This document shows positions 10,262 through 61,147 of a DNA stretch of 64,000 nucleotides, in pieces (within the stretch, counting starts at the first letter, position 1; each line of letters opens with the position of its first letter). The stretch is from Candidatus Gottesmanbacteria bacterium UBA6580 (GTDB lineage Bacteria; Patescibacteriota; Microgenomatia; UBA10105; UBA927). Below the pieces are notes generated by a model. The model ran no database searches, was not told the origin of the DNA, and was given only the letters and a program-made list of their open reading frames with translations. Location of the stretch: the NCBI GenBank assembly GCA_002433895.1, contig DJJA01000004.1:24132-88131 (forward strand), in the 5' to 3' direction. A program made the position numbers and the translations under genes.

Positions 10262-11488
10262 CTATTTGCAGTGCCAGGACGCCTCCTCAAAGTTGAGCGT
10301 CTCCAGCAGACCGGCGTCTTCGGCATAGACCGAAATGGCGCCATCGGCGGCAGTCCACACATCGAACCATCCGGAACCTCCGGGGTGGGTCAAATGGTGA
10401 AAGCCGTTGCCTTTGCTGTTGAACGTCCATGCGCCACCTTCCCAGTCGGGAGCAGTCCAGTAAGAAGGTTCGTCGCCTCCGAGGATTGCTGCTGCCATAA
10501 CGGGGTTGGCGGGACACGTGGTGTTCAGGTCAGGCTGTACCCAGCGTCCACGCAGGTGGATGTTGATGCCGGGCACGGTCCCATACCGGGGGTCTTGACG
10601 GAAGCCGTAATTGAACTCCCGTGCCATGAGCGTCACGTCATCGTGAACCCAGGCTTGGTCATGGCTGGTGAAGGTCTTGAGCTGACGGATTGTCGCGCCC
10701 CATACCCACATGCCCTTGTGCGGACCCTTGTTGACGGAAACGGTGCCATCGGCTTCAGTAACCGTATACTCGAAGTTGTCGAGGAACGGCTGCCAATAGA
10801 CACCGATGCCGACCGCTTGCACGACCCACTTGCCGCACCCTTCCCAAGGTACAGCCAAGCCGTCTTTGAGCGGTTTGACGCCATTTGTGGGCCAGCCGTG
10901 CGCTTCGATGAGTTGCGCATTGGTCAAGCAGGCGTCGCTGTCCGTGCCGCTCGGCGTGACGTTGGCGGGTGCCGACGTATAGCTTACCGGCGCGGGCAAA
11001 ATGGTGCCACCGCATTCGATGGTGACTGCGCCGACGTGGACAGAAGGTGCGCCCAGTGCACATCCTTCGATAATCGCGTCCCGAACCGACTGTTCATCAC
11101 TAGCATGCACCACGGTACTGGTTGCTTTGGGCGTCAGGGTGTAGGTCACTGCCACTGACGTGTTGGTCGGCGGGATGTTTGTCGCGGTCGACGTGACGGT
11201 CTTGGTCGGCGTGAAAATCGCAGTCGCCGTTTGAGCCGGTGCATCGGTCACGATGGAAATGAACGGGCCATCGGTGGCTGTTGCAGTTGGACCGCCTGGC
11301 ACTGTTGGCGTGGCGCTTCCATAGACAATGATTTGTGCCTGCGTCAGGGCGGCGTTGATGGTTGCAGTTTCTTTCGCGTCGGTCGTGATGTCGTTCGCAT
11401 CCGGCGTGAACAGTCCACAACTCATGGTCACCAATGCCAATACGATAAAGGCAGTGGCAGCGATGCGGTGTTTATTTTTGGTAAACAT
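10262..11488 (-). CDS. Secreted/cell-surface protein with a signal peptide and a Thr-rich linker
   Basis: N-terminus MFTKNKHRIAATAFIVLALVTMSCG is a signal peptide. It is followed by T/A/P-rich low complexity and then a Trp/Gly-rich globular domain. Confidence 0.6.
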   Translation of the reverse strand: MFTKNKHRIAATAFIVLALVTMSCGLFTPDANDITTDAKETATINAALTQAQIIVYGSATPTVPGGPTATATDGPFISIVTDAPAQTATAIFTPTKTVTSTATNIPPTNTSVAVTYTLTPKATSTVVHASDEQSVRDAIIEGCALGAPSVHVGAVTIECGGTILPAPVSYTSAPANVTPSGTDSDACLTNAQLIEAHGWPTNGVKPLKDGLAVPWEGCGKWVVQAVGIGVYWQPFLDNFEYTVTEADGTVSVNKGPHKGMWVWGATIRQLKTFTSHDQAWVHDDVTLMAREFNYGFRQDPRYGTVPGINIHLRGRWVQPDLNTTCPANPVMAAAILGGDEPSYWTAPDWEGGAWTFNSKGNGFHHLTHPGGSGWFDVWTAADGAISVYAEDAGLLETLNFEEASWHCK

Positions 11489-18138: not shown

Positions 18139-21100
18139 TTATTTCGGCTGTTTTTTGACAAATGATATTTCCAGTTTATCGCCGGAGATATCGATGCGTC
18201 CTGCCTGCCACTGTTGATTGATGCGGCCATTGATGTGATCAAGTACCAATCCATTGAAATTATTAAGACTGTTGCGTATGGTGCCTTCGGCGAGCCGGAA
18301 GAGCATCGGGAGTTTGATGTTTAAAGTATTTTTATCAACAATCAATCCCTTGGTCGGATCGGTGATAAGCGTGCCGGAAAATTGCGCTTCTCCAAGTTTT
18401 GCGCCTGCTACTTTTATTTTTGCGGTCATATCTTCCAGTTTGACCCGGTTACCGAGAAGGGTAATACGGCCTCCTGTAATTCTGGTACCTGCCATATCAA
18501 CAGATGATTTGACGTAGTCCATAAGCTCGTTGCTGGTAAACTGCACTTTTGCTTCTGACTCTTTGCTTCTGCTGACGACATAGTTAATCCGATCATCAAC
18601 ACCCTCAGGGAGGGGAGCTTCTGGCTTTGGTGTTTCTGGTGTTCCTGCTTGTTCTGGTTGATTGGCTTCGTTTACCTCCGGTGAACTGATAGAAGATGCG
18701 ACTGTTTCGGTGGTAGGCGTTTCGACTATTGATGCTTCCGCGTTTTCACCCGCCATGCTTTCGAGGTGTTCGCGGGATGTTTCCGGGGCTTTTGGGGTCG
18801 CCGCGACGATTTCAGGTGCGGTTGTTTTTGCGTATGCTTCGATGTCGGGGGCAACCGACATATTTGCGCCAAGATTAGTGGTATCAAGGAGGTTCACCTT
18901 ACCATCTTTGAGTTCGTAGGTGAGACCCAGTGAGTCTAAGGCGCGGGTAAAGTATCCATTAAACCGTTCGGGATGCCCGCTTTTCAGTGACGGATACATG
19001 TGTTCGTACATGTTGGTAAGATGCGTTTCCAAATGTTCTTTGGTAAATTGTTCGCTGGCAATTTTACCCATTTCTTCCCAGGTCATATTTTTATACACTT
19101 CATTATTTTCAAGCGGTGCTGCCGGTTCAGCTAATCCGAGCTGTTGAAGTTGCATATAGATGGTTTCTTTGGGATCCATAGTGGCAGTCAGGGTGGGAAG
19201 CACAGTCGCGACGTCAGGCGTGCCGCGTGCTTCGGTGATCATCCACGCAAGCTCCCGTTCTTCAAGAAATGGTGATGTTTGATTGTATCCGCCGACTGCA
19301 GCAAGTGTGCCTGCACGTACCGCAAGATTGCCTTGGAATACCGCCGGTACGCTTTGTGCCTCTCCGTGCCGGACAAGCGCATCAAACACTTCAAACGCTC
19401 GGTGATGGGCAAATAACATTGGGTACGTCGCGTATGTTTCCGGGGGTAGTTGATATGTGCCGCTTACCATATCAAGCGTGGGATTGGCATCAAGCGCGTC
19501 AACAATACTTGAAAGATATGTGGCTTCTATTGGTTTGCCAGTGCTGTTTTCTGCAATTATTACCGCTTCCGGGGCTTCTGCCGGCCGTGAAGCAAGGCGT
19601 GATAGGGTGAAATTGGTCATGTCGCGTTTTACCTGGCCACTCGTTGGCGCATTCTGATATTCGCGGGTGACATACACGACCTGCATATCCGGGTGCTCTG
19701 TTTTAAAGCGTTCGATTTCTGCTTTTGTGTTTCCGGGTAACGTTTGATTGACGGAGCCGGTGGGCGGGGTGACGGTCGCTTCGTAGATCACAAATTCCGT
19801 ACGCTTCGGGTCAATCGGTGTGCCATCAGCATTGGTTTGCCCAGCATAGTTATTGAGGCGGTCGTAAATAGTGCTGCCATTTTGTACGAGCGGAATTGTT
19901 ACTACCGCGCGGACATCGGGGTGTACTGCCGGATTTTCCTGTGCTTTCAGGTCTTCGAGCATTTGTGTCTCCTCAGGAGACAATGCGCCGAGGTACCAGT
20001 CAATTTCTTCACGTTCATTGAGTTTCGCTTGTGGATTTTCTTTCAGCCGAGGTGATGTGCGCGCTGCAAGTGCTTCACGATTGATAAATACTTCTTCATA
20101 GCCAAACGGACTTAACAACATATCTCCCGAAAGTGCGTTGGGTGCTAAACTTTCGACTGGTAGTGCTTCTAAGACATGGCGATACGGGATAAATATCGGT
20201 ACCCACGGGATTTCCGGTGCAGGTGTGCCCGGTATCACGGTTGTTTCGACGTTGTAGGGAATATCCAATGGCTTCGCCGCAAGGATTTGACCCATAGGCG
20301 CGTTATCGGTGTGCACTTCTGTCAGTGTAAACTGATGAATGGGTATGATTTTTTCCGGCACGGCTGGTGCGACAACCTCGGGGGAGCTGGTTGTTTCCGT
20401 TACGCCAAGTTTATGAAGAAGTGGTGCCAACTCAGCTTCGGTGGGTAGGTCAGCGTCCCGGCCAAAATATCCCATGCGGAGGAGTAGTGCATCTATTTTG
20501 TCCTGTTCCGATCCTTTTTCTAATATCGCGAGCACTTCCATGGGACCTTTACCGGTTGCCGCTATCTCCTGATACCGGTCAATCGCGGCATTATTAAGTT
20601 CACTGAATTGTTTAATTGCTTCCGGGCTGAAAAATTCCTTCGGTACACTGATATGCGCATCATTAGGAATTCGTGCAATATCAAACTCTTTTACCGCGGT
20701 ATCGCCAAACGTCGCGTCACGGAGATGGAGTATGTGTTCTGATGGGCTTTTTCCATCACCGAGTGTAATATTTTTGGGTATTCCTTCACTGTCATGGGGC
20801 ACCATATGTTGTTCATATAGTCGGAAAAGATTTTTCAGACCGTTGGTCGTGGCAACTTTGTTTTCGCCTTCAGCTCTGTCCATGAAATAGTTCCACAGTC
20901 CGCCCTCGCGGAGGTCGCTGCCGCGGATCTCCATCATCTGACCAGCAGCAGGTGCTTCAGGAGAGGATGGGAGCACGGTCGGAAGTTCGGCGGATAATCT
21001 TACTCGGCTTACTTCAGGGGTTTCCCATTTTAAACCGTGCGCGTTAAGTTCATTGGTGATGCGGGTAATCTCTGCTGGGGTGCCTTTGAGTTCACCGGTA

Positions 21101-24042
21101 TCGGTAAACTCCAGGACAGTGACTGCCTTGTTATCGGCGTCAATGAGTTGCCAATTCTGTTGACCTGCGGCGTGCACCAGGCGGTAGCCATCAGGAAGTT
21201 TCGCGGTGAGTGCTGCATCATTTGGTGCAGTGAGATCAGGGATTGTGACGACTTTTTGTGTGCCTTCTATAATATCGCCTGCTTTATGTGGTTCAACAAA
21301 CGTGAGCCCCGCCTTTTCTAGCGTTTTGCGAACCTGATCCTCGGTCATATTGGTTCCTAACACTACGTCTTCTTGACCCCGGAGGTTGGCAATAAGACTT
21401 TGGTCAAATTTTGCGTCATATAGTACTTTGCCGGTACTGTCTGTGTGAGGTATGAGTGTTAGTTCTTTCGGTAATTGATACGGTACCTGATGCGCGGCAT
21501 CGGGTCCCAGCGATACGACGTGGTCGGCGCTTGGCGGAGAAAGTTCGATATGCGCGGTACCAGTAGCGTGCGCTTTGTCACTCAACTCCGCAGCTCCCTG
21601 CGTGATCGTGTCGCCATGACCAATTTGAGCAATTCCCTGTACCGCTACGCCGACTGCGGCGCCTACAACTCCTGCCTTTACGCCGTATTTGACCGCTTCG
21701 ACGCGTGCTTCTGCTTTGAACTCTTCGAGTATCGCATCAAGCCCCATGGCTTTTTCTTCACCACTTAATGCTTTGGATGCAAACGGCCATCGGCGTTTGA
21801 CGATGTCAACCTCCGGCGCATACGAAGATATGAGATTAAGGGTGAGTTTAATGGGGTCATCGAGCGCATCGAGGGTGTTGACCCCTTCCCGCAATACTTG
21901 CGTTTGGCTTACGGTGAGCTTTTCCATAAACTCTGGGAAGGTGTTGCCGCCTAAGACTGTTGCTGATTGTTCGGCATGGGTTGATAAATAGGCGTCGAGA
22001 TCTGCAAGCGCTTTGTTAGCAGTGAGGTCAAGTGCCGCGCGTTCGCTTTCGATGGTTTCGCGGCTGGAAAACTGTATCATACCAATTCTTTTTGGTCCTG
22101 TTTCACTGACGGCCTTCCTCGCGTGGAGATCGGCAACGGTTGCAAACGCGCTTCGCAGCTCGTCATCAGTCAGATTTGCTTTGAGTACATCGTTTTCATA
22201 GAGTGTTGTCGTAAGGCTTCCCATCATTTCATCTGCCCGGCGTTGTTTGACGGCAAATTTTTCAAACCACGCCCTGCGCTTTTGTGTTTCGGTAAATTGG
22301 GCGCCAGTTTCGCGTTCGCGTAGATGCGTCATGTAATCCTTGTTGAGCTGTCCATATTCGCGCCAGCCGGCAAATAGACCTCCTGCCAGGGCACCACCGG
22401 TAAGGCTCCCGAGTGGACCCGTAATGCTCGCAACTGCTTTAAACGGTGCGGTTTTCAGGAAATTGACGGCAGAGAGCGTCAGTGCCACGCCGGAACCAAT
22501 CGTCGCTTCGTTGAAGAGCAAGGGAACAAGAACATTCTTTTTGTTAAGCCATTCGGCGATTTCCCGGATTTGTCCCACTCCTTTTTCAACTGCTGTGGGC
22601 TCCAGGCTCGTGACTTCTCCCATCTGTCCCAGACCTAGCCTAATCTGCATGCCGGCGATTGCTTCGTCTATATTGGCTAGTCCTGCCTCATGGGACATTT
22701 TCGTGCGTAAGGTTTCTGCTACCTCATACAGGCTCGAACTATATAGTTCTGCCTCAGCAAAAATATCCGGGCGGGTGTCTTTGAGTGTAGCTTTGAAGAA
22801 TTCTTTTGTTCGATTATCAAATTCGGTTTTGTCTGCTATCTCGCCACTCGCATACTGTTTGAGGAGTGTTTGTATTCCTTCTACCAGCGGCTTATGTTCT
22901 TCTTTTGTGGGGTCTAATATCTCCAATTTCTCACCGAGTTGTGTCCGTATAAATTGGTCGGCATTTTCAAGATCTGTTCCAAATCGGGCTCGAACCGCTT
23001 TTGCTTCGCGCTCGAATGTTTCTAAGCCTTTGATTTCTCCCGTTAGACGCATGGCGCCGATTTCTTCGAGTGCCATGGTTTGGATACTCGTCCGCATGCC
23101 GACTTTATCTTTCAGCCAGTCAGCAGCTCTCGTTCCTGCCCGCACAAGAAAGTTTGCATCGGCTAGTTTGTTGTTATATCGGTCTGTGGCACGGCGTTCG
23201 GCCATCCGTATTGCTTCTTCGGCAAACGGGGTTTCTGCCGTCTTTAACATATCCATGTAGTACTGCCGGCTTTTTTCGTGGAAGTAGATACCGCCGATAC
23301 TTTGTTTCCATACGTTGGTAAAGACAAATTCATGGATGCCATGCACGGCCTCCTTCGTCTTTTCCCAGAGATTACGATTGGCCGTCGCTCTCGCTTCAGC
23401 ACTCGGGCTGGATAGCTTCTGCATGCTGCGGTCAGCAAGATCCAGTGCCCTCGTTTCGTATGCCTTAAGACCAACAATAGTGATGGTGTTGGGGTCTTCC
23501 TTGAGCGTTTCCAGAATTTCTCGTGCGTCTTTGGTTGGCGTAGGTGTTGGTGCTTCAGGAGTTGCGGGTGCTGGCTGCTCAACTGAAGGCTGTCCGGTGA
23601 CTACCGGTGCTTCCACCGGCGTTTCCGTTGCGGTGACCGGTGCACCAGTGGCTTCAGGAGCCTTGGGAGTAGGCGTGGCAGTTGTTTTGGGCTCCAGCGA
23701 AAGCGATTCCTTGGTGATAATATGCGGCGTACCCGCTTCATCGGTCCACTGTACTCCCGAGAGTTTGTCCCAGGGGATTTCATCAAACGCGTTAACATTC
23801 GTGAGCGGCTTATCGATGAGCTTGCCTTCTTCACCCTTTTTGCGGCTGGCTTCTTTGACAAGAGGGACAGCGCTTCCGACGCCATCGTTGGCTCGTTTAT
23901 CGGCGCCAAGAATAGTGATATAGCTGATTTCTTTGCCCGTGATTTGCTGCGGGGTGGTGAGATAAATAGCCGTTTCACCCACGATAATCGATTGCGGCTT
24001 GGGAGCTTCGGGTGATTGTGGTGTTGGATGTGGTTCTGCCAT
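18139..24042 (-). CDS. Giant (1967 aa) acidic hypothetical protein, no recognisable catalytic motifs
   Basis: Uninterrupted 5.9-kb ORF with an acidic N-terminal third (…TPEAPTPTPTKDAREILETLKEDP…). The overlapping antisense ORFs are low-complexity and judged spurious. Confidence 0.75.
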   Translation of the reverse strand: MAEPHPTPQSPEAPKPQSIIVGETAIYLTTPQQITGKEISYITILGADKRANDGVGSAVPLVKEASRKKGEEGKLIDKPLTNVNAFDEIPWDKLSGVQWTDEAGTPHIITKESLSLEPKTTATPTPKAPEATGAPVTATETPVEAPVVTGQPSVEQPAPATPEAPTPTPTKDAREILETLKEDPNTITIVGLKAYETRALDLADRSMQKLSSPSAEARATANRNLWEKTKEAVHGIHEFVFTNVWKQSIGGIYFHEKSRQYYMDMLKTAETPFAEEAIRMAERRATDRYNNKLADANFLVRAGTRAADWLKDKVGMRTSIQTMALEEIGAMRLTGEIKGLETFEREAKAVRARFGTDLENADQFIRTQLGEKLEILDPTKEEHKPLVEGIQTLLKQYASGEIADKTEFDNRTKEFFKATLKDTRPDIFAEAELYSSSLYEVAETLRTKMSHEAGLANIDEAIAGMQIRLGLGQMGEVTSLEPTAVEKGVGQIREIAEWLNKKNVLVPLLFNEATIGSGVALTLSAVNFLKTAPFKAVASITGPLGSLTGGALAGGLFAGWREYGQLNKDYMTHLRERETGAQFTETQKRRAWFEKFAVKQRRADEMMGSLTTTLYENDVLKANLTDDELRSAFATVADLHARKAVSETGPKRIGMIQFSSRETIESERAALDLTANKALADLDAYLSTHAEQSATVLGGNTFPEFMEKLTVSQTQVLREGVNTLDALDDPIKLTLNLISSYAPEVDIVKRRWPFASKALSGEEKAMGLDAILEEFKAEARVEAVKYGVKAGVVGAAVGVAVQGIAQIGHGDTITQGAAELSDKAHATGTAHIELSPPSADHVVSLGPDAAHQVPYQLPKELTLIPHTDSTGKVLYDAKFDQSLIANLRGQEDVVLGTNMTEDQVRKTLEKAGLTFVEPHKAGDIIEGTQKVVTIPDLTAPNDAALTAKLPDGYRLVHAAGQQNWQLIDADNKAVTVLEFTDTGELKGTPAEITRITNELNAHGLKWETPEVSRVRLSAELPTVLPSSPEAPAAGQMMEIRGSDLREGGLWNYFMDRAEGENKVATTNGLKNLFRLYEQHMVPHDSEGIPKNITLGDGKSPSEHILHLRDATFGDTAVKEFDIARIPNDAHISVPKEFFSPEAIKQFSELNNAAIDRYQEIAATGKGPMEVLAILEKGSEQDKIDALLLRMGYFGRDADLPTEAELAPLLHKLGVTETTSSPEVVAPAVPEKIIPIHQFTLTEVHTDNAPMGQILAAKPLDIPYNVETTVIPGTPAPEIPWVPIFIPYRHVLEALPVESLAPNALSGDMLLSPFGYEEVFINREALAARTSPRLKENPQAKLNEREEIDWYLGALSPEETQMLEDLKAQENPAVHPDVRAVVTIPLVQNGSTIYDRLNNYAGQTNADGTPIDPKRTEFVIYEATVTPPTGSVNQTLPGNTKAEIERFKTEHPDMQVVYVTREYQNAPTSGQVKRDMTNFTLSRLASRPAEAPEAVIIAENSTGKPIEATYLSSIVDALDANPTLDMVSGTYQLPPETYATYPMLFAHHRAFEVFDALVRHGEAQSVPAVFQGNLAVRAGTLAAVGGYNQTSPFLEERELAWMITEARGTPDVATVLPTLTATMDPKETIYMQLQQLGLAEPAAPLENNEVYKNMTWEEMGKIASEQFTKEHLETHLTNMYEHMYPSLKSGHPERFNGYFTRALDSLGLTYELKDGKVNLLDTTNLGANMSVAPDIEAYAKTTAPEIVAATPKAPETSREHLESMAGENAEASIVETPTTETVASSISSPEVNEANQPEQAGTPETPKPEAPLPEGVDDRINYVVSRSKESEAKVQFTSNELMDYVKSSVDMAGTRITGGRITLLGNRVKLEDMTAKIKVAGAKLGEAQFSGTLITDPTKGLIVDKNTLNIKLPMLFRLAEGTIRNSLNNFNGLVLDHINGRINQQWQAGRIDISGDKLEISFVKKQPK

Positions 24043-47709: not shown

Positions 47710-49140
47710 ATGAAGGTTTTGTTTGTCACAAGCGAGATTGCAACACTGTATAAAAAAGGTGGTCTTGCTGATGTGAGTTATGCCCTCCCTGTCGCTCTTT
47801 CCCAACGGGGGATTAATGTATCGGTAGCAATGCCGTTTTATGAAGCCATAAAGGTTCGTGATGTTTCGTGTGTTGGGCAGTTGGCCATTGATTATGACCG
47901 GCGGCGTGAATTAGTTTTTGTGTTTCGCACATTACTTCCTCATTCTCATGTGCGGGCGTATCTATTCCGGCATCCGTTGCTGAATGATTACGATGATGCA
48001 CATATAGCTGACCGGTTTGCCTTTTTTTCCAAGGCGGTAGCCCAGCTTTCGTTGTATTCAGAAAATGTCCTTGGAGGTCCGTATGACATTATTCATTGTA
48101 ATGATTGGCATACGGCACTTATTCCGTTGCTTATCGGGGAACAGAGCAAAGTGGGATATCGGGAACGGGAAACAATACAATCCAAAAGGGTCAAAACCAT
48201 CCTCACGGTTCATAATCTCCTTTATCAGGGGGAGGCGGGATTTTCTCTTACCCTCAAATTAGGTTTTCCAAAAACTATTTTTCACCCGTTTATGACACCG
48301 TTGGGCCGTGCTGTCCGGTTGTTGACGGAAGGGTTTGAATACGTAGATATTGTGACGACCGTGTCACCCACATACGCGAAGGAAATTACCCGTGGGGTTC
48401 ATGGAAAACGGATTGTTGAGATATTTAAGCGGCGCAAAGACACCATTGTAGGGATTTTAAACGGTTTAGACACCAAGCTTTGGGATCCGAGTAACGACCC
48501 GGCATTGCCAGTCCATTATTATCCGAATTCAGTGGCTCCTGCCAAAGCGAAAATTAAACAACAGTTGCAGCAGGCAGTACGGCTACCAAAGTCTGATGCG
48601 CCGCTGTTCGGTTTTGTGGGGCGTCTGGAGCCGCGGCAAAAAGGGCTTGATCTGATTGCCAGCGCTATTAAAAAATTGGCAACAGAAGATTATCAATTGG
48701 TGCTGCTGGGTACCGGGCAGAAAAGCCTGGTGACCCTGTTTGAGAAGCTCGCCCGTGACCATCACAATATCGCGTTTATCCATACATTTGATGAGCGCCT
48801 TGCCCGCCGGATTTATGCGGGAAGTGATATCATGTTAGTTCCATCAAAGTTTGAGCCTTGCGGATTAACACAGATGATCGCCATGCGCTATGGCACGCTT
48901 CCATTGGTACGAAAAACCGGCGGACTTGCTGATACCGTCAGTGACGGCAAGACAGGGTTTGTCTTCGGGCCATACACGAGTGCTGCCCTGCATGCCAAGA
49001 TGATAGAAGTGATATCGCTCTATCGGAACAATCCGAAGAAATTTTCATCGATGATGACCGCGGCAATGAAAGTTGATTTTTCGTGGGCGCACCAGGTGAA
49101 GGATTATATAAGACTTTACAAGTCACTTCTTGCGGGATAA
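47710..49140 (+). CDS. glgA: GT5 glycogen/starch-synthase-like alpha-glucan synthase
   Basis: MKVLFVTSEIATLYKKGGLADV is the KxGGL ADP-sugar motif. C-terminal VPSKFEPCGLTQMIAMRYGTLPLVRKTGGLADTV is the classic SRFEPCGL plus second GGL motif. Confidence 0.85.
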   Translation: MKVLFVTSEIATLYKKGGLADVSYALPVALSQRGINVSVAMPFYEAIKVRDVSCVGQLAIDYDRRRELVFVFRTLLPHSHVRAYLFRHPLLNDYDDAHIADRFAFFSKAVAQLSLYSENVLGGPYDIIHCNDWHTALIPLLIGEQSKVGYRERETIQSKRVKTILTVHNLLYQGEAGFSLTLKLGFPKTIFHPFMTPLGRAVRLLTEGFEYVDIVTTVSPTYAKEITRGVHGKRIVEIFKRRKDTIVGILNGLDTKLWDPSNDPALPVHYYPNSVAPAKAKIKQQLQQAVRLPKSDAPLFGFVGRLEPRQKGLDLIASAIKKLATEDYQLVLLGTGQKSLVTLFEKLARDHHNIAFIHTFDERLARRIYAGSDIMLVPSKFEPCGLTQMIAMRYGTLPLVRKTGGLADTVSDGKTGFVFGPYTSAALHAKMIEVISLYRNNPKKFSSMMTAAMKVDFSWAHQVKDYIRLYKSLLAG

Positions 49141-50552
49141 CTTTCGTCGTGCCTGGTTTTTACTAGTTTTTCATTGAGTTTTTACCAGTTCTTACAAGTG
49201 CTTGTAAGTTGATTTTGGATTGTATTGAAGCGAAAACTCATATGTTGCTTGGTTTTCACCGGGAGGGGATGTTCATGAGTATCGCGTAAGATTTTTACTT
49301 TTGCACAAGGGTATTTTTCTTGTTTTCATGTGACACTAATGTCATGAAGTTGAGTTTCTTAGGGTGGTTTATACATGTCTTCGGGGTATAGAGAACCGGT
49401 AGTATGTAACTTTTCGTGTATCTCGAGCGCTTCGGATCGTTTAGGCAAGTTGACGGTCAGTCATCAGTAATGCGGACGCAAGAACATGTTCGGCATTTTA
49501 AGGTTACGGGAATGTTTACCTATGGGGTAAAGGTTACGGATCACACACAAATTTTCTGGTTCTTAAGACGGTGTGTCTTAATCTGGCATGTACATCTCTG
49601 GTGGTTATTTAAAAGGGTACATTGTAAATGAGGTTTTGCAACAGTATTCAGGCGTTGGGGTTGCCTGACGTCGCCCTGATTGTGTCGTAGGTCGATGTTT
49701 GCATGCTGCGATTTTTTGACACATTATTACTTGGATTTTCTCGGGTTTTTTGGATGGTTTGGATACAGGTAAATCTTGGTGCATCAGGGGGGTGTTCAGT
49801 GAATAAATAGAGGTGTGATGCGTGTGCGGTTCGTTGGGAATATGGTATAGAGCGAACACAAGAACATTTGGTATGTGTAGGAGGTATTGTCCGGGTTCAC
49901 GGGCACTATTGGGTATTCAGGGCATCTCTAAATGGTGACTTACGAAGTACCGTGTCGGGTGACGGGTCGCACAGCCGGGCGCTTGGGGGTGTAGTAGGTG
50001 GTTGTGGATATTGGTAAGTTAACTCATTTGATGTTTGTGGCTCAGTTTCTTGCGTGTTTTCTAAGGCCTTTCCCGTAAGAGTGATTGTTTTCTGGAGTTA
50101 AAAGTTGTGCGGTAGTCACATAGTATGATTCGCACAGACGATACGTGAGTAGATTGGGGGTAATAGAAAACACGGGGAGACGTTTCCATTTCCGTCGGGT
50201 GAGATGCGATATGCATGTGTCCGGTTGTGACGTGATATTGCGTTTGTTTTTATGCCATGTATCGTGATCGCTTGTATGGCGTCGTATATCAGCGATCTAT
50301 GGTACGTGCAGGAAGGCATAATAAGGAGGTAATCGCACGGTATTGAGTACATTTGAAGATGAATCTGTACACAATTTTTGACTGAGTTTTTGTACGGAAA
50401 AAAATGCGAGAATATAGTGGGGTATCGCAGGATTGCTTCTCCAGTTGACAATAGGTCTAAATTAAGGCTAATCTGTATATAGGTTTTCACATATTTGTAA
50501 TAACAGGTAAAAAAAGTAGTAAAAACTTGTAAAGAGTAGTAATAATTTCGCA

Positions 50553-52544
50553 TTGGTACAGGCTAAAGGGTTTGGGAGCCTGCCTGACATGCCCAAAACA
50601 TACACCGTTAAAGAAGTCGCCGATATCTTAGGATTTAGCACCAATAGCATCTACGCGTTTCTCAAAGAAAAGCGGATTCGTGGTGTGCGTATCGGTAAGG
50701 GGAGATTTAGAATTCCGGAAGAAGAACTATCCCGCATACTGCATTTATCCAAAAAACCGGTTGGCGTGCCTGTGGCGGCAGCCCCAGTTGCGAGTGCCGA
50801 GGCCTCTGCAACTTCAGTCATAGGCTCGTCTGTTGATGCGTTGTCACCAACCGGTGACGCGGTGTTTATAGAACCGAAGTATTCGGACGCCGGTAAGATG
50901 CGGGGAGATTTGCTTGCCCCGAATATATTTGATTGGTTTATCGGCTTAGGCGCATTGGTTGCTGGGGTGGCGCTGTTTCTGTTTAATACAACCTTTACTG
51001 CTGAAGAATTTCCGCGGATGACACTCATGTATCCGGTTATCCGGATTGTACTTATCGCATGTGGTTTTGGTGTGATCATGAGTTGTGTATTTCCCAAGGC
51101 TGGTGGTTGGCGGCGGGTATTCCATCTCACACTTTCTGTATTGGGGTTTATTAACGCGTTTGGGTTAATAAAAAGCGGGGATATCGAAGGGGGCGCATTG
51201 TATGGGGCTATGGCAGTGATGATTTTACTTGAGAATTTTGTGCGATTTGGCGGCATTGTTGCAATTGGCTTGTATGTATCTTTGATTGCGATTCTCGTGC
51301 CCGCAGTGATATTGTTTTTCCCCATAGATTCCCATGTGAGTGCGCTCTCTGCGGTGACAGGCGTGCCGGCACTTATCATCGGAATTGTTTCGCTTGTTGT
51401 CTCGATAGCACTCTTGATACTGTTTTGGCTGGGTTACGCAGGAAATAGGAAGCTTTTCTTGTTGGCTGCATGGCTACTATCCATTGGTGATGTCGCCGTT
51501 GCACTCTGGTATGCACATCTCCAGTACTGGAGCAGATCATTTTTTATCCTTGTAGTGGGAATGTTCACCGCGCTTTTACCGTACTGGTGGCCGTTACAGC
51601 AGCAATTGGCACGCCGCTACAAGCTTTTGCTCCACGGATTGTTTGTTGTCATTAGTGCTGTGTTTGTACTCGCCGTGCTGGTAGTGTATTTATTGCAGCA
51701 AAGTATATGGGCTGTCCGTGAACGTGAGGCGATGAATAAACTGCACGTCGCGCATACAAGGCTCACGAACGCAACCTCATCTATTCAGGGCTCTCTGGAG
51801 GTTGCATCGAGCAACATTGACTTCGTCAAGTCGATGAGTAAGCCTGATATAGCGACACTCAATAAATATAGCAAGATTATTTACGAAAGTAATCCGAATA
51901 TCCGCCGGCTCGTTTTCTTGGATGAGTATGGGCAGGGTATTGCGCTGTACCCGTATGGCACGTTTGATGAACCGAATTTTTCGTACCGTGATTATTTTCA
52001 ACAAACCAAGAATACCGGAAAATCATATATATCCGATGTATTTCAGGCAAAGTCCGATCAGTCGGGCAGATTTGTGGTGGTCATTGCGACCCCACTCCTT
52101 GATGCTGGTGCATTTACCGGAGTGGTGACCGCATCGATGGATTTGGAGCGTATTGGCTTTTTGCTCAGCCAGGTTGCCGCTGGCGGGCAAGGGGAATATT
52201 TCGTTGTCGTGGACGCCCGAGGGGTCATTCTTAGTCATCCGAACGAGAAGCTTATCGGTTCTGTAGTGCCATCATCAGATCCGTTGCACCGGGCGCTGAA
52301 GGGTGAAGAGGGCATAGTAAAAGGCATGATGATTGAGGGTATGCTTGGCATGATGGGGTATGTCTATATTCCGGAGCTTCGGTGGGCGATTAGCTTACGC
52401 GCTCCTGCCGCAAAAATAGTTGGATTGTCTTCTGAGGAAATATGGATTGTCTTCGGGGTGGTATGTGTACTTATTGGCGCAGGGATAACTGTCATTTCTT
52501 ATATAAGGAGCAGGGCGTATGCAGGTAAAGAGGGGGGTCCCTGA
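50553..52544 (+). CDS. Membrane sensor with N-terminal excisionase/MerR-type HTH, multi-TM region and periplasmic Cache-like domain
   Basis: [43 protein letters not shown] is an excisionase-family HTH. At least 8 hydrophobic helices follow. After them lies a Cache-like extracytoplasmic region (…[39 protein letters not shown]…) and a final TM. The stop overlaps the start of the next gene (TGATG). Confidence 0.65.
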
Positions 52545-55500
52545 TGAGCCGTAATGTCTATTATAAAATTGACCGGTCGAAATCCGCAGCAGGCGGATTT
52601 CTCGCTGATAAGGAGTCACCGCAATCACGGGTATCCGGAGGGTTTCATTCTTTGACGCTATTGTTTCCGTTGGTTTTTGTCTTTATTGTCGGAAGCGTGT
52701 TTGTGGGTGCAGCGCAAATCATCCGGCATGATGATGCGGAGAAGTCTCAAGCGGATCGTACTACTGATGTGCCTGTTATTTCCCGGCTAACGGAAAAAGT
52801 GCTCGCTGAAAGTAGCTGGAAAGATCCTTACATAGTGCTGGTTCAACGGGCAGACGCATCCATAGCATATGCCTATATTGAGCAGGCAACCGTTAAAAAT
52901 GGCGCATTTGTGGGTGATGTCACGATACGGTATGCAAATAATGAGCACGGAATAGTGCGGGACGAAAACGGCACATTTAACTTCTTTTTGACAAAACTGG
53001 GAAGTCAGGAACCGGTACAAATTTTAGTACCGGTCACTATGGGGATTAAGTTGTCGGATGGGGCTATCTTGCCAGCGCAGTTGTCTGACGCGACGATCAT
53101 AAATGAGCAGCTCGTTGGGCAGTTTGTTGCTACAACAATTCTCGATAGGGTGCAGATTGCAGGGAACATATCTGCACAAAAGCAGTTTCTTTCGTTGGCT
53201 ATCGAACCGACATTAAAGTCTGTTGATGCGGGATTAGTCATGGTTCAACGTGAGGTTTTGAAACTCGCACTTGCTGGGGTTGGGGAAACAGGGGGTGTCT
53301 TGGGGGTAACTACCGACAGTATGAATAAAGGAGATACAGGTGTTCGGCTCCTTGCCTCAAATTTGGGAAGTAATCTCACGATACAGAGCTTCAGTGGTGA
53401 AGGAGTGATACGTATCGTATCAACAATAAACAATATAGATCAAAATATAACAAACATACAAAATCTAAATCCATCATTTGATAGCACTCCTGACAATCAA
53501 TCATCACAGCTCGCGTCGCAGCAGTTTTTATCACAGGGATTTTATCCTTCTTCATTAATAAGGGGTACTGGGATCGAGGGAAGTACGGGAGCCACGGGGG
53601 CTACCGGTGCGAGAGGTGACTCCGGGGCAGCCGGATCGCAGGGTGCTGACGGTAAAGATGGCGCTACGGGTGCAACAGGCGTTGGCGAATTAGGTCCTAT
53701 CGGTCCTACCGGAGCAACAGGATCCGGTGGTGGAGGAGGCGGTGGAGGTGCCGACGGACCGACGGGAACTACGGGAGCAACAGGAACTCAAGGTGCCAGT
53801 GGCCCGACGGGCGCAACGGGCAGTACCGGAGCGACAGGGCAGTATGGCCCGACGGGCGCAACGGGCAGTACCGGCGGTATCGGTCCTACTGGTGCAACCG
53901 GAGCCACCGGAATACAAGGATCATCAGGCCCAACAGGAGCAACGGGAGGATCAGGAAGTGCCGGGGTTTCCGGCCCCACCGGGTCTACGGGTGCAACTGG
54001 TACACAAGGAGCAAGTGGTCCGACGGGAAGTACCGGTGCTACTGGATTACAAGGTAGCTCCGGTCCGACGGGAGCCACCGGTGCAACCGGTGTTGGTGGT
54101 CCTACCGGAGCAACCGGTGCCACGGGAATACAAGGTGCTTCGGGTCCGACCGGAAGTACGGGAGCAACGGGAGCTAACGGTGTATCTGGTCCCACAGGGG
54201 CAACAGGAGCAACGGGTACAAATGGTGTTCAGGGTTCCTCCGGTCCGACGGGAGCCACCGGCGCAACAGGAAATCAAGGAACGCAAGGTGCTTCTGGACC
54301 TACGGGAGCAACAGGAGCAACAGGATATCAAGGTGACAGTGGCCCGACGGGCGCAACGGGCAGTACCGGGGCTATTGGATCAAGCGGCCCCACCGGTTCA
54401 ACAGGTGCAACTGGCACACAAGGAGCAAGTGGTCCTACCGGATCTACGGGATCGACCGGAGCCGCGGGTTCACAAGGCTCTTCCGGCCCCACCGGGTCTA
54501 CGGGTGCAACCGGATCTGCGGGTGCAAGCGGTCCTACCGGGAGCACGGGAGCAACAGGAACTCAAGGTGCCAGTGGCCCGGCCGGTAGTACCGGAGCGAC
54601 AGGGAATGTTGGGTCATCCGGTCCGACGGGTAGCACTGGTGCGACTGGTTTAAGTGGCAGTTCCGGTCCAACAGGGAGCACGGGAGCAACAGGAAATAAC
54701 GGGAGTGATGGACCGACCGGTGCGACCGGTCCCACCGGATCGCAGGGAGGAGCCGCGGGAGCGACCGGGCCTACTGGTGCTACGGGATCCACTGGAATAC
54801 AAGGGTCATCCGGTCCGACGGGGAGCACAGGAGCCACCGGCACCGTTGGATCATCCGGTCCCACCGGTTCAACAGGTGCAACTGGATCACAAGGCGCATC
54901 AGGTCCTACTGGATCTACGGGATCAACCGGTGGCATCGGCGCATCAGGCCCCACCGGTTCAACAGGTGCAACCGGAGAAGTTGGTACATCTGGTCCAACG
55001 GGGAGTACAGGATCCACCGGAACTGCAGGAGCCTCTGGTCCTACCGGAAGCACTGGTGCAACAGGAGAAGTTGGTACATCTGGTCCAACGGGGAGTACAG
55101 GATCCACCGGAACTGCAGGAGCCTCTGGTCCTACCGGAAGTACCGGAGCCACTGGTAACGTTGGTTCTTTCGGTCCTACTGGCTCAACAGGTGCAACCGG
55201 AGCAAATGGCGCAAGTGGTCCGACGGGAGCTACCGGTTCTACAGGGACACAAGGTTCACAAGGTGTCTCCGGTCCAACCGGAAGTACCGGAGCCACCGGC
55301 GCCGTTGGATCTTCAGGTCCGACTGGTTCAACAGGATCAACAGGAAGTGTGGGAAGTTCAGGTCCGACGGGATCTACAGGAGCTACAGGTTCTGCGGGAG
55401 CATCAGGTCCAACCGGAAGTACTGGTGCAACTGGAGCAGCAGGTGCGAGTGGTCCAACAGGTTCCACTGGTGGGACTGGTTCAGCTGGTGCGTCAGGTCC

Positions 55501-58500
55501 GACGGGAAGCACAGGATCTACTGGGAGCGTTGGTGCAGCGGGACCAACAGGATCGACGGGTTCCACCGGAGCACAAGGTGAACAAGGCGCATCAGGTCCA
55601 ACAGGAAGTACGGGTGCTACCGGCGCCGTCGGATCTTCAGGTCCGACTGGCGCAACAGGGTCAACAGGAAGTGTGGGAAGTTCAGGGCCTACTGGTTCCA
55701 CCGGCGCAACCGGCGCTGCAGGAGCGAGTGGACCCACCGGTTCAACCGGAGCCACCGGAACTGCGGGAGTCTCTGGTCCCACGGGAAGTACTGGAGCAAC
55801 CGGAGCAAATGGTTCATCAGGTCCAACGGGTGCGACAGGATCGACAGGAAGTGCTGGAGAAAATGGTCCCACAGGATCTACCGGTGCTACGGGTGCAAAT
55901 GGATCATCCGGTCCTACCGGCTCCACGGGGTCAACCGGAACAAATGGTGCAAGTGGACCGACGGGAGCTACCGGAGCAACGGGGTCCGCCGGAACACAAG
56001 GAGCATCGGGTCCGACAGGGAGTACGGGGTCAACCGGTACGCAAGGATCATCAGGCCCCACGGGAGCAACGGGAGCCACTGGAACACAAGGATCTTCCGG
56101 TCCTACTGGTTCAACAGGCGCAACTGGAGGAATAGGTGCATCCGGACCGACCGGGGCTACAGGGTCAACAGGAAGTGTGGGAAGTTCTGGTCCTACGGGA
56201 AGTACTGGAGCAACAGGAGGAGTTGGTGCATCAGGCCCAACCGGAGCAACCGGATCCACCGGTGCTCAGGGAAATGCAGGTGTTGATGGCCCGACTGGGT
56301 CTACCGGTGCCACTGGTACGCAAGGAAGTTCAGGGCCTACTGGATCCACCGGAGCTACCGGAAGTATCGGTGTGAGTGGTCCAACAGGTTCCACAGGTGC
56401 GACTGGTACAGCCGGCGCATCCGGTCCCACAGGAAGTACGGGAGCTACCGGAAGTACCGGAGAAAATGGTCCGACCGGAACAACTGGAGCAACTGGCGCA
56501 AATGGTCCAACAGGAAGTACCGGCGCAACGGGTAGTGCAGGAGCTTCCGGCCCCACCGGGTCTACGGGTGCAACCGGAGGAGTTGGTGCCTCCGGTCCCA
56601 CTGGTTCCACGGGAGCAACAGGAGGAGTTGGAGCAAGTGGACCCACAGGTAGTACCGGTGCCACCGGAGCAAATGGTCCAACGGGTAGTACAGGAGCCAC
56701 TGGTAACGTTGGTTCTTCCGGTCCTACTGGCTCAACAGGTGCAACCGGATCGCAAGGCGCTTCAGGTCCTACTGGATCAACTGGAGGAATCGGAAGTTCC
56801 GGTCCAACTGGGTCCACCGGTGCGACTGGCTCTGCAGGTGAACAAGGAGCTAGTGGACCCACAGGGTCAACAGGCACAACTGGCGCAAATGGTCCCACTG
56901 GTTCCACGGGAGCAACTGGTACACAGGGTGCAAGCGGACCGACAGGGAGTACGGGGTCAACCGGTACGCAAGGATCATCAGGCCCCACGGGAGCAACGGG
57001 AGCCACTGGAACACAAGGATCTTCCGGTCCTACCGGAAGTACCGGTGCCACTGGTACGCAAGGAAGTTCAGGGCCTACGGGAAGTACCGGAGCTACTGGT
57101 AATGTTGGCTCTTTCGGACCAACGGGTTCTACCGGAGCAACTGGCGGAGTTGGTGCAAGTGGACCGACAGGGGCTACCGGGTCTACAGGAAGTGCTGGAG
57201 AAAATGGTCCCACAGGAACGACGGGAGCCACTGGTGCAAATGGCCCGACCGGAAGTACGGGAGCAACTGGTACACAGGGTGCAAGCGGACCGACAGGCAG
57301 TACAGGAGCAACGGGTGTAGCTGGCGCCTCCGGACCGACGGGTTCTACCGGAGCAACTGGATCGCAAGGCGCATCCGGACCGACCGGGGCTACAGGGTCA
57401 ACAGGAAGTGTGGGAAGTTCTGGTCCTACGGGAAGTACTGGAGCAACAGGAGGAGTTGGTGCATCAGGCCCAACCGGAGCAACCGGAGCAACGGGGTCTG
57501 CTGGTGCAAGTGGCCCAACAGGAGCAACAGGAGCTACTGGTTCACAAGGAAATGCCGGACTTGATGGCGCTGATGGTCCCACCGGTTCTACCGGTGCCAC
57601 TGGCGGCATTGGTGCAAGCGGACCGACAGGTGCTACCGGATCAACAGGAACTGCAGGAGAACAAGGAGCTTCCGGACCAACGGGTTCTACCGGTGCAACC
57701 GGATCAATTGGTTCTTCAGGTCCTACCGGTTCTACTGGTGCCACTGGAGGAGTTGGAGCAAGTGGACCCACAGGTAGTACGGGAGCTACTGGTTCTGCAG
57801 GGGAACAAGGTGCTTCCGGTCCAACGGGATCTACTGGGGCAACTGGGTCACAAGGTGCCAGTGGTCCTACTGGTGCGACTGGAGCCACGGGTGGAATTGG
57901 TGCGTCAGGTCCAACGGGCGCGACCGGCGCAACGGGTAGCGCAGGAGCTTCCGGCCCCACCGGGTCTACGGGTGCAACCGGAGGAATTGGCGCCTCCGGA
58001 CCGACGGGATCTACCGGAGCAACGGGTGTAGCTGGCGCCTCCGGACCGACGGGAGCAACGGGAGCTACAGGAAATCAAGGATCCGCGGGAGCCTCTGGTC
58101 CTACCGGAAGTACCGGAGCCACGGGAGCAAATGGTGCGTCAGGTCCTACCGGTTCAACAGGATCGACCGGAGCAAATGGTGCGTCAGGTCCTACCGGAAA
58201 CACCGGTGCAACTGGTGCTGCCGGAGCGGGTGGCCCCACCGGTTCGACCGGAGCGACGGGAACACAAGGATCCGCGGGATCCTCTGGTCCTACCGGAAGT
58301 ACGGGGGCAACCGGAACTCAAGGATCCAGCGGTCCGACGGGGTCAACTGGAGCAACCGGTGTAGCGGGTGTTACCGGTCCAACGGGTTCTACCGGTGCTA
58401 CCGGTGCTGCCGGAGCAAATGGCCCTACAGGGGCGACCGGAACGACTGGTGTACAAGGTCCTACCGGTCCTGCGGGTCCGGGCGGTGAAACATTTATATT

Positions 58501-61147
58501 AGATGGCGGCTCGTATCTCTATGTAAATACGACGTATGCGACCGACTTTAACTTTGACGATTTAGTATTGGGATTAGATGGTGATGCCGGAGCGACGATT
58601 ACCACCAATGATACCAACGAAACATTGGGAATTGATACCAACGGCACCGGAGCGATAAGCATCGGAACGGGAGCAAACTCAAAAACGATCACCCTCGGCA
58701 ATACCTCGTCTACGACCAGTCTCGTGCTTACCAAAGGCGCGTCGGGGAATATTACATTTACCGGATTTGACTGTTCTTCATACACAAACGGCGGTGTCCT
58801 CACAACAGATGCATCCGGTAATATTACCTGTGCCAATGATGATGGCGGCAGTGGCTCACAGTCACCATGGACTTCCGACATTGATGCCGATGGATTTGAC
58901 CTTAGTGATCTATCTAATATCCTATTCCGCGAAACCACGGGGGCTCCGACGGGTACCGATGTAGGCTTGCATCGGGATAACTCAGGGGATCTTAATCTCA
59001 ATGTGCTTACCGGTAAAACATTTAATGTACAGGTAAACGGCACGGATGAATACAATTTTTCATCAAGCGGACTTACTATCGGAACAAATTCGCTTATTAC
59101 CGGTGCTACCACTATCGAATCGACAGAACTTGACCGGCTTGACGGCAAAGACGCCGCACTCGTTGATCAGAACGATCTGACCAGTGGTGACGGCAGCGGG
59201 GGAACCAGTAGTGGATCAGGATTGGAAGCGGGTACCGGTGGGATTGGCCTTTTGCAGGGATGTAGCGATGACCAGGTGCTAAAATGGAATGAAAGTTCTG
59301 CGGTATGGGAATGCGGAAGCGACCGCGCGACGGTAAATATCCGGAAAGCCGCAGATGAAACGATCACTTCAAGCGCCGCGTTGCAGGACGACAACGAGCT
59401 GTTGTTTGCGGTCGCCGCCGACGAAACGTGGGCAGTGGAAACATCATATACATATTCGACAGGTGGTTCATCCACTCCTGATATCCGTGTTGGCCTCAAC
59501 GCGCCGAGCGGAGCCACTTGTACGTATGGAACAGTGAATATTTCCCATGCAGGAAATTTAGCAGCTGGATCTGTCGCGTGTGACACGGCGATTGTGGTAG
59601 CGACGACGGCAACCGGCAACAAAAACGGTATTTTAAGCGGTACGGTAGCTAACGGCGCAAACGCTGGGAATATTACTTTCCGTTGGGGGCAGGGAACATC
59701 GAACACAACCGGCACCACGGTTGAGTTGGGGAGTTACATGTTAGGATTTAAGATTTCGGGTGCCGATTTGGCGGAGGTATATTATGCAACAAACAGTGGA
59801 ATTCCGAAGGGGACAGTTGTCTCGCTCGATCCTGCGCGAAACGCCGGGATAATTCCATCCCAACGGGCGTATGACCCGAACGTTCTTGGTATTGTGTCTA
59901 CCCAGCCCGGACTGGTGTTGGGTGAGTCAGGTGGGGGCGGAGGGATTCCGGTTTGGGTAGCGCTTACCGGGCGGATACCGGTACGGGTATCAGCTGAAAA
60001 CGGTCTTATCCGTGCCGGCGATTATCTCACGGCTTCCAGTCAGCCCGGAGTTGCCATGCGGGCAACCAAGGCTGGCGCTATCGTCGGGCAAGCGTTGACC
60101 AGTCAGGCATCAAGTGATCAACAGGAGGTTATCGCGTTTGCGAAAAATGGCTACTTTAACGGGGTTATGCCGGAAATCCCCGCTCCGTTTATAACGGGTG
60201 ACGAAGTAATCGATGAAAATGCAGCAGATCCGGCACAAGCGATGCTATCGTATTTCCTGCGGCAGCGGGGAAACGGGTCGTTGCAAGGGGCTCCGATGGA
60301 TGTAAGCAGCATCGTTGCTGACCGGGTAGTAGCAGGTTTGGAGGTTATCACGCCAAGATTGGTAGCTGATGAAATTGTGGCAAACAAAATAACTGCGGAC
60401 AGCATTTCTGCAAACCGTATCGAGGGATTGGAAATATTTACGGATAAATTATCGTCATTATCTTCGCAATACGATGCGTTGTTGACGATTGCCATGAGCG
60501 GTCAGGCAAGCGTTGCCGGGGTAGCGGTGGACACAACAATAGCAGGAACGCCGTCCGCTGTTGTTACACCAGCGGTTTTTGAGACGTTAATACAGTTTAT
60601 GCAGGGGATACGGGTCCGCGGCGGCGCATTGTTTGAAGATGCGGTATCTATATTGGGTAACCTTATTGTTCACGGTCAACTGGTCGTAAGTTCTGATACT
60701 GCGGGTATCGCCGTCATACCGAAATCGACAACAAGTGTTCGTGTATCATTCAAGAAGAAGTTTGACTACCCGCCGGTGGTGACGATCACCCCGGTATACG
60801 CGGATGATACGGATCGCGCGTTTATCGGTGATGCGGTGCGTGCTGTGGTAGCAGGGGTAACAGCAGAAGGTTTCACTATTGTGTTGGATGCCGCGGTGCC
60901 AAGGGATCTTGAATACAGCTGGATAGCGTTGGGGGTACAGGAAATCCGTAGAACCTTCGGAAAGCCGATAAGCGGTGATCCGGTGCCGACAAACACGCCG
61001 CAGCCAGCAGCGCCGGGAGAGCCATCGCCCACGGCAACACCCACACCGGGCGCATTGCAAGAGCAGCCGGGTCGCGATAGCAATCCCGAGCCTGAGTTAA
61101 AAGATGAGGTATTGTCCGAAACGTCGGGAAGTGCGGTAATCCAGTAA
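52544..61147 (+). CDS. Giant (2867 aa) membrane-anchored collagen-like triple-helix-repeat surface fibre protein
   Basis: N-terminal TM anchor [22 protein letters not shown] 280-aa N-domain. About 1600 aa of uninterrupted Gly-X-Y triplets ([15 protein letters not shown]…) encoded by 45-nt tandem units. A roughly 900-aa beta-rich C-terminal domain rich in G/T/S/N, tail-fibre-like. Single uninterrupted frame. Confidence 0.85.
53570..58480 (+). repeat. About 4.9 kb of in-frame 9/45-nt tandem repeats (GGN-NNN-NNN collagen triplets) inside the giant gene
   Basis: The unit ggtcctaccggaagtaccggagcaactgg and its variants recur about 100 times. This creates long spurious ORFs in all other frames and on the opposite strand. 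Confidence 0.85.

Follow-up and report, generated by a model that had tools for sequence, protein, structure and literature searches.

A putative transmembrane one-component regulator with an excisionase-type head, encoded next to a giant collagen-like fibre gene in Gottesmanbacteria

What does a membrane protein with an excisionase-type DNA-binding head do directly in front of a giant collagen-like fibre gene? The question is raised by a stretch of 64,000 nucleotides, here called the window, from Candidatus Gottesmanbacteria bacterium UBA6580 (assembly GCA_002433895.1, contig DJJA01000004.1, positions 24,132 to 88,131 of the forward strand). An initial annotation had proposed that the gene encodes a membrane-tethered one-component regulator with a helix-turn-helix (HTH) head and a Cache-like sensor, translationally coupled to the fibre. 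Patescibacteria (Candidate Phyla Radiation, CPR), to which the organism belongs, are ultra-small and mostly uncultured, and many are thought to be attached to other cells. To our knowledge, almost nothing is known of how they sense the environment or control their attachment structures.

The reading favoured here, and held with a little better than even confidence, is that the protein is a transmembrane one-component regulator in a two-gene 'sensor + fibre' cassette, with the HTH acting on arrays of phased repeats in the leader. The earlier idea of a membrane-tethered regulator linked to the fibre finds support, its regulatory part drawn from comparative genomics. New are the predicted operator and the conserved sensor-fibre cassette with a seemingly interchangeable regulatory module.

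Architecture and family of the protein

The mechanical open reading frame (ORF) extends from a TTG at 50553 to 52544 on the plus strand (663 aa), but the real start is most likely the ATG at 50589, because all homologues start at the corresponding MPKTYTV and a GGGAG (50574-50578) lies 10 nt before it (Table 1). At the other end, the proposed overlap with the collagen-like gene is present: the last letter of the stop TGA (52542-52544) is also the first of the ATG that opens the fibre ORF (52544-52546).

From N to C terminus, the protein consists of a winged HTH of the HTH_17 type, a disordered linker of ~55 aa, nine transmembrane (TM) helices, a double Cache domain and a tenth TM helix. Pfam and NCBIfam scans of the ORF gave no kinase, GGDEF, receiver or other output domain, as the initial annotation had supposed. 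A full-length AlphaFold2 model built on 36 family members has a mean predicted local distance difference test score (pLDDT) of 84 and a predicted TM-score (pTM) of 0.72; the membrane domain alone reaches pLDDT 92 and pTM 0.89. Hydropathy agrees with the model on nine TM helices before the Cache domain and one after it, and the 'about 8' helices first proposed were right as to a polytopic protein and wrong as to the count. Which end faces the cytoplasm? In the 36 family members, lysines and arginines in the short loops total ~8.9 where these are predicted inside and ~1.7 where they are predicted outside. By the positive-inside rule, this bias implies a cytoplasmic HTH and an extracytoplasmic Cache domain, with the nine helices between them. 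TM9 runs on as a long stalk helix in the model. The nine-helix domain has no Pfam family and no specific solved relative, and no specific fold or profile match to a known translocase, flippase, transporter or enzyme family was obtained for it; the possibility that the middle region is a transporter, raised beforehand as a threat to the regulator idea, did not materialize.

Both curated models for the head score above their cut-offs, Pfam HTH_17 at residues 17-62 of the ORF (38 bits, cut-off 27) and NCBIfam TIGR01764, 'excisionase family DNA-binding' (35.7 bits, cut-off 28.8), and the excisionase-type assignment stands. The AlphaFold2 secondary structure (strand 4-6, helices 7-14 and 18-26, strands 33-36 and 39-43, helix 44-54; pLDDT 84-89) has the strand, two helices and beta-hairpin wing of a winged helix. 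Pukovnik Xis (4J2N, E 0.002-0.003) is the sole full-domain sequence match in the PDB. The head is also the most conserved segment of the family, with a mean column identity of 82% against 40% for the whole protein and invariant residues in the recognition helix and wing (STN..Y, R29, G32, R34, G36, G38 and R41). On direct repeats, BldC assembles into head-to-tail multimers (PMC5859096); one paper groups RdfS, BldC and Pukovnik Xis as HTH_17 winged helices that oligomerize on DNA (PMC11963761); and the sites of recombination directionality factors (RDFs) are described as direct repeats one helical turn apart (PMC7498355). The DNA-binding domain family is the same in BldC, Pukovnik Xis, RdfS and Apl, but these are soluble proteins of 55-90 aa, several of which work with recombinases, whereas the domain studied here heads a polytopic membrane sensor of 651 aa.

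The extracytoplasmic part matches Pfam dCache_1 (residues 402-578 of the ORF, 88.2 bits, cut-off 45) and forms two lobes in the model (residues ~410-610). Foldseek against the PDB aligns it with Mlp24, PctA, KinD and DctB (E ~1e-9 to 1e-10, target-normalised TM-scores of at most 0.80). The layout is that of dCache_1, namely a long N-terminal helix and two PDC lobes flanked by TM9 and TM10, with an extracytoplasmic location by charge bias, and what had been called Cache-like is a true double Cache. Cache domains are small-ligand sensors. What might the ligand be? The closest solved relative by sequence is the sensor domain of KinD (Bacillus subtilis sporulation kinase D, 4JGO/4JGP; E=3e-15), which signals via a histidine kinase, whereas the present protein lacks one. 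A near-invariant arginine (R467 in 'fRdYF') aligns with KinD Arg131 ('ADRSFF'), the residue replaced in the deposited R131A structures; 4JGP is a pyruvate complex. The conserved arginine is predicted to occupy the position that contacts the carboxylate ligand in KinD, and a small carboxylate would be a reasonable guess for the ligand, at most. An amino-acid sensor of the dCache_1AA type was considered and rejected: of the motif, Y121-x4-R126-x-W128-Y129 ... Y144 ... D173 (PMC8915833), the arginine alone is kept, while the residue five positions before it is not tyrosine, the tryptophan is replaced by tyrosine and the aspartate is not invariant.

How widespread is this arrangement? A word-indexed search returned 103 clusters (90% identity), from 94% down to 27% identical to the query, and all but one (102/103) carry HTH_17 together with dCache_1; the exception (P0090, 428 aa) has HTH_17 only. 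An exhaustive profile search of 1.84 billion representative proteins (50% identity clusters) gave 282 with E<=1e-30. Among the best 150 of these 282 matches, nearly all are 600-690 aa long and match end to end. With its full-length architecture kept in the 103 clusters and the 282 representatives, the ORF is no chance reading frame. Few members bear a source name; those that do are called 'excisionase family DNA binding protein', 'DNA-binding protein' or 'hypothetical' and come from Patescibacteria, Gottesmanbacteria and Roizmanbacteria, and by these searches the family is compact and specific to Patescibacteria (Gottesman- and Roizmanbacteria). Species-representative genomes, of ~1-1.2 Mb, supplied 44 loci. 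Many records of metagenome-assembled genomes with the locus are titled 'uncultured Gammaproteobacteria' or 'Pseudomonadales' (L008, L010-L012, L015, L017, L024, L027, L029-L032 and others); these titles are very likely a labelling artefact, seemingly systematic in one deposition series.

Phased repeats as a candidate operator

Where might the head bind? An exact TTGACA is found 70-217 nt (median 135) 5' of the ATG in 43 of 43 loci, and on this ground a putative sigma-70-type promoter is placed upstream of the gene. Between this promoter and the ribosome-binding site (RBS) lies an array of short direct repeats. Two to five such repeats, with a consensus across loci of ~ AACTTGTAA, occur in nearly every leader, at a density ~8 times that in the rest of the loci; their spacings cluster at 10-11, 21-22 and 32-33 nt, and the motif is retained at protein identities from 94% to 25%. 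Relative to the presumed start site, the leader array spans about +15 to +65.

When the whole 64-kb window is scanned with a position weight matrix (PWM), at least three hits within 60 nt are found at two places only, 50492-50535 and 49157-49200, which flank the intergenic region upstream of the gene. Over 691 kb of loci, clusters are likewise nearly confined to the leader, to a site 1.1-1.4 kb upstream (mostly inverted) or to the gap between the regulator stop and the fibre gene, where many of the more distant loci have an inverted array. Because arrays are found both along and against the direction of transcription, recognition at the DNA rather than the RNA level is favoured. The initial annotation had suggested looking for an inverted repeat in 49141-50552; a candidate site is indeed present, but it consists of helically phased direct repeats. 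Such arrays fit the head-to-tail binding mode of BldC- and Xis-type proteins, which the present protein may share.

To which protein do the arrays belong? Where the window has its intergenic gap, most loci (34/43) carry a divergently transcribed gene for a protein of ~315 aa; apart from a weak DeoR-like winged helix at the C-terminal end, this protein has no Pfam match. Tandem GATAAGATTA-like repeats lie just 5' of the -35 box in 32 of the 34 loci that have this gene and in none of the nine that lack it (p=1e-7). The window has neither the gene nor the GATAAGATTA-like repeats. The divergent protein would seem to be a second regulator and the repeats its operator, both of which the window's lineage would have lost. 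The ACTTGTAA arrays behave otherwise. They are kept in all nine loci without the divergent gene, and they follow the HTH instead: of the 43 loci with the HTH, 37 have at least two leader hits, against none of the four loci whose protein lacks it (p=0.0012), the latter having no array in the leader or after the stop. Conversely, one of these HTH-less loci (L121) has the divergent gene, its product 32% identical to that of L001, and keeps the GAT-type repeats. This double dissociation, in which the ACTTGTAA arrays track the HTH and the GATAAGATTA repeats track the divergent regulator, makes the former the likely candidate operator of the HTH_17 domain. The assignment agrees with the HTH being the most conserved segment and with the binding of direct repeats in the HTH_17 family.

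Many otherwise divergent leaders also share a CTGCC motif 2-6 nt 5' of the start codon (50580-50588 in the window; cctgcctgacATG, ctgcccatATG, ctgcctATG).

A regulator, a membrane partner of the fibre, or both

In the protein encoded by the giant gene downstream, an N-terminal TM anchor and a domain of ~330 aa precede a stretch of Gly-X-Y repeats ~1650 aa long; the C-terminal region matches an H-type lectin (28 bits, cut-off 24) and, weakly, the Peptidase_G2 intramolecular chaperone. This fits a membrane-anchored trimeric surface fibre with a putative carbohydrate-binding tip. A giant Gly-X-Y gene comes next in ~40 of 43 loci; in the closer clade the two reading frames share 1 or 4 nt, and in the distant clade the fibre starts 57-173 nt downstream.

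The profile search also yielded relatives with the same core (nine TM helices, dCache and a TM helix) and no HTH. Four cases are genuine (L117/L118, L119, L120 and L121), with no space upstream for an HTH. They still directly precede the giant fibre gene, often overlapping it. In the last three loci, a receiver-only response regulator is encoded just upstream (3/3), in two of them (L120 and L121) together with a histidine kinase. The conserved core would then be '9TM-dCache protein + fibre', because relatives without the HTH retain the fibre gene, with a receiver protein encoded upstream in place of the HTH, and the regulatory module on this sensor-fibre pair appears interchangeable, either a fused HTH or a two-component module. 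In the Cache-superfamily paper, transcription factors count among the Cache outputs, and every protein found to have a Cache domain is stated to have an output domain too (PMC4822843); to this second point the relatives without the HTH seem to be an exception. A fifth candidate, P0178 (L116), was rejected as HTH-less, since its start is miscalled, the HTH stands in frame with CTG replacing ATG, and the arrays are present. At ~4950-5060 of this locus the HTH frame is intact (…TGA ATA TTT TAT CTG CCT AAA ACT…) and the gene caller starts ~100 codons later; the CTG reflects a sequencing error or else a non-canonical start codon.

How could the parts work together? In the regulator reading, the nine-helix membrane domain and the ~55-residue linker would connect the outward-facing double Cache to the cytoplasmic Xis/BldC-type HTH, which would polymerize head to tail on the phased repeats of the leader ACTTGTAA array and of the second array nearby. 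Binding to the leader array would most likely repress the operon or act as a roadblock, because this array lies in the initially transcribed region. A ligand, or the state of the fibre, might alter the occupancy of the arrays, and the cell might in this way tune how much sensor, and how much of the translationally coupled giant surface fibre, is made.

Several observations weigh against this reading. The -10 box of the putative promoter fits the consensus at three of six positions, and a strict sigma-70 consensus scan did not call the window's promoter. Six of the 43 HTH loci have fewer than two PWM hits in the leader, and the HTH-less sample is small, at four loci. Phased arrays are not exclusive to this HTH, because L117 has an array of six TGGTAAA units away from any HTH_17 gene and beside a different HTH protein; it stands between a divergent 220-aa HTH_23/28 gene and an operon of a 69-aa ORF and Trypsin_2, 1.85 kb from the HTH-less gene, and no HTH_17 ORF lies within 17.7 kb. 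(The 69-aa ORF was itself considered as an HTH and rejected.) Translational coupling to a giant structural gene is unusual for a pure regulator. Lastly, the function of the TM-Cache core may not be transcriptional, given that the HTH-less relatives keep the fibre; their position in front of the giant gene points to a fibre-linked role of the core beyond transcription.

The last two points lead to the alternative that the protein is mainly the membrane partner of the fibre: it might anchor the fibre, help in its assembly or export, or serve as a co-receptor, in physical contact with the N-terminal TM anchor or domain of the fibre, and the HTH would be a lineage-specific add-on that serves autoregulation only or has minor weight. 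As the main function this seems unlikely. The stop/start overlap does suggest co-production in a fixed proportion, and the N-terminal domain of the fibre is conserved in loci with and without the HTH, as would suit a partner; but the conservation of the HTH argues against a vestigial head, the TM domain resembles no known translocase, flippase or enzyme, and a small-ligand sensor is what a Cache domain would indicate. The two readings are compatible and do not exclude each other.

Might the ACTTGTAA arrays be phased A-tracts, i.e. curved-DNA elements of the promoter, or sites of some other protein, with the HTH binding elsewhere or nowhere? The repeats are A/T-rich as well as helically phased, and the comparable array in L117 shows that an HTH_17 gene need not be near. 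A metagenome scan for the exact three-unit array gave 64 matches, of which two are family loci and the rest perfect 10-nt microsatellites of unrelated organisms; with nearly all matches unrelated, the scan is uninformative on a regulon, and it lends the A-tract idea some colour. Against this idea, conservation of the core [T/G]GTAA extends to its sequence, beyond A-tracts alone, and the arrays co-vary with the HTH independently of the other regulator encoded in the loci. Position counts against it as well: of the PWM hits within 260 nt upstream of the ATG, 112 of 113 lie downstream of the -35 box, mostly 50-100 nt past it, which is not where an UP element would be. This explanation is judged quite improbable.

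Very improbable, and rejected, is an excisionase or recombination directionality function, in which the HTH would be an RDF or architectural protein and the inverted arrays the ends of an invertible segment that phase-varies the fibre: the HTH type, the inverted pairs of arrays flanking the upstream region or the regulator gene and the terminator-like hairpin between the two genes in many loci would fit, but no recombinase gene was called within 10 kb in relatives (L001-L003), gene orientation is identical in the 43 loci and the extra ones, and the repeats of the arrays are degenerate, unlike matched inverted repeats around a crossover core.

Returning to the regulator reading, a wider proposal, tentative and on the doubtful side, joins it to the fibre. 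The 9TM-dCache protein and the fibre might constitute a previously unrecognised, Patescibacteria-specific surface-sensing device, in which the polytopic protein would be the obligate membrane partner of the fibre and would report ligand binding or fibre engagement (e.g. contact with a host cell) inward. The output would be interchangeable: either the fused Xis-type HTH, polymerizing on phased repeats and tethering the operon to the membrane where the fibre is inserted, or the adjacent receiver and histidine kinase.

The locus offers a concrete and testable circuit, with a defined sensor, a DNA-binding head, a predicted operator and a target in the lectin-tipped collagen-like fibre of ~2,900 residues; all of these are amenable to tests in vitro or in E. 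coli, with no need for a culture of the organism. If the regulator reading is true, BldC/Xis recognition, i.e. head-to-tail polymerization on direct repeats, would extend to a membrane-anchored sensor. The family would also represent a natural swap of a fused HTH for a two-component module on one sensor-fibre core.

Known systems and neighbouring features

Is there a known system of this kind? The protein is an uncharacterised variant of the transmembrane one-component regulators. With the transmembrane transcription regulators (TTRs; ToxR, CadC, TcpP and a wider census) it shares a cytoplasmic DNA-binding domain, membrane span(s), an extracytoplasmic sensor and the lack of a phosphorelay; as the definition of a TTR has it, a DNA-binding domain and at least one TM region are combined in one protein, whose transcriptional action from the membrane is here predicted. 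The earlier label 'ToxR-like' holds as a functional analogy and fails as a family assignment: ToxR and CadC have an OmpR/PhoB-type winged helix and one TM helix, whereas here Pfam gives HTH_17 only, with no Trans_reg_C, and there are ten TM helices. Membership of the ToxR family was rejected.

The TTR census lists proteins with up to 22 TM regions, and of its 50,302 TTRs, 151 (0.30%) have HTH_17 and 936 (1.86%) have dCache_1 (Demey et al. 2023, PMC10269533). The dCache_1 TTRs typically carry a C-terminal AraC-type HTH_18, and neither the text nor the available supplements of the census mention Patescibacteria (PMC10269533). The dCache_1 + HTH_18 regulators, such as BH0483 and STHERM_c03910 in that census, resemble the present protein in joining an extracytoplasmic dCache_1 directly to a DNA-binding output. 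In these two, the Cache domain is followed by the C-terminal AraC-type HTH and one predicted TM region is listed, unlike the N-terminal Xis/BldC-type HTH and the intervening nine-helix membrane domain found here. A parallel in function are ArnR and ArnR1 of Sulfolobus acidocaldarius, described as membrane-bound one-component regulators of a type IV pilus-like surface filament (PMC6396743); they differ in being archaeal and in having unrelated domains and an unrelated type of filament. A literature search, not exhaustive, found no description of the family and no paper that pairs HTH_17 with dCache_1.

Table 1. Features of the regulator-fibre locus and of related loci (positions in the window unless a locus is named; AF2, AlphaFold2)
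Feature	Position	Strand	Details or basis
Gene of the HTH_17-9TM-dCache-TM protein	50589..52544	+	651 aa from ATG 50589; stop TGA 52542-52544
Winged HTH, HTH_17/excisionase (Xis, BldC) type, residues 1-54	50589..50750	+	Pfam, NCBIfam, AF2
Disordered low-complexity linker, residues 55-110	50751..50918	+	pLDDT 34-63 (AF2)
Polytopic membrane domain, 9 TM helices, residues ~113-370	50925..51698	+	
Stalk helix and extracytoplasmic double Cache (dCache_1), residues ~371-612	51699..52424	+	Pfam, AF2, Foldseek
TM helix 10 and short basic cytoplasmic tail, residues 615-651	52431..52541	+	Hydropathy, AF2 (helix 615-648), loop charges
Putative sigma-70-type promoter	50445..50474	+	TTGACA 50445-50450, 18-nt spacer, TAATCT 50469-50474
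Leader array, 4-5 direct repeats	50492..50548	+	Consensus ~aaACT[T/G]GTAAaaa, 10-11 nt spacing; between promoter and RBS
Second array, same motif, inverted	49157..49200	-	3 PWM hits; just past GT5 stop, 1.3 kb upstream
Giant collagen-like fibre gene	52544..61147	+	2867 aa, membrane-anchored
GC-rich hairpin ATCCGC-agcag-GCGGAT and T-rich tail	52582..52606	+	38 nt after stop; fibre codons 13-21
TGGTAAA x6 array	L117 6131-6205		10-nt spacing; directly upstream of TTGAC -35 box
Receiver/kinase module upstream of HTH-less genes	L119 5545-5916; L120 4245-5911; L121 2660-4915		
Divergent ~315-aa gene	L001 8771-9730; L003 8788-9729; 32 further loci	-	Missing from the window

Upstream of the regulator, a conserved run of genes encodes MreB, WecG, several GT4 glycosyltransferases and a GT5 starch-synthase-like protein. 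Between the last of these and the promoter, the window has a gene-free gap of 1.3 kb (49201-50440) in an otherwise compact genome, with stops in all six frames; on the plus strand it is poor in C (14.5% C, 62.5% G+T). Rfam gave nothing in the intergenic region, either at the gathering threshold over the window or at E<=1 over 49100-50620. The gap contains no remnant of the divergent regulator, has no similarity to the other fetched loci except L049 and has no excess of RNA structure (z -0.79 and -1.38). L049, the 94%-identical relative, has the same gap, 99.6% identical.

Compared with L049, the window also has a mosaic boundary within the regulator gene, at ~50900, where identity drops sharply. 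The two sequences are 99.5-100% identical across GT5, the gap, the promoter and the HTH, and just 85-96% identical over the part that begins with the TM region and ends at the stop codon, where third-codon identity is 0.86, against 0.99 in GT5. This suggests that recombination among near-identical strains has swapped the TM-Cache part, and perhaps the fibre as well.

Elsewhere in the window, four minus-strand ORFs have no Pfam match at E<=0.001: 18139-24042 (1967 aa), 4364-7129 (921 aa), 7116-8552 (478 aa) and 10262-11488 (408 aa).

Between the regulator and the fibre genes, 31 of 43 loci have a GC-rich hairpin followed by a T-run, at a fixed offset of 22-45 nt from the regulator stop; among control windows the share is 5.5%. 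The stems vary yet stay complementary (ATCCGC/GCGGAT, TCCCGC/GCGGGA, TTCCGAC/GTCGGAA, AACTTCC/GGAAGTT and others), and in the window's clade the hairpin sits within the fibre coding region. It may represent a transcription attenuator between the two genes. GC-rich palindromes of the CCGCCAGCTGGCGG and CCTGCCGGCAGGCAGG type are found repeatedly in leaders and early fibre codons (L015, L019, L030, L040, L042 and L117) and may be elements of the repetitive extragenic palindromic (REP) kind.

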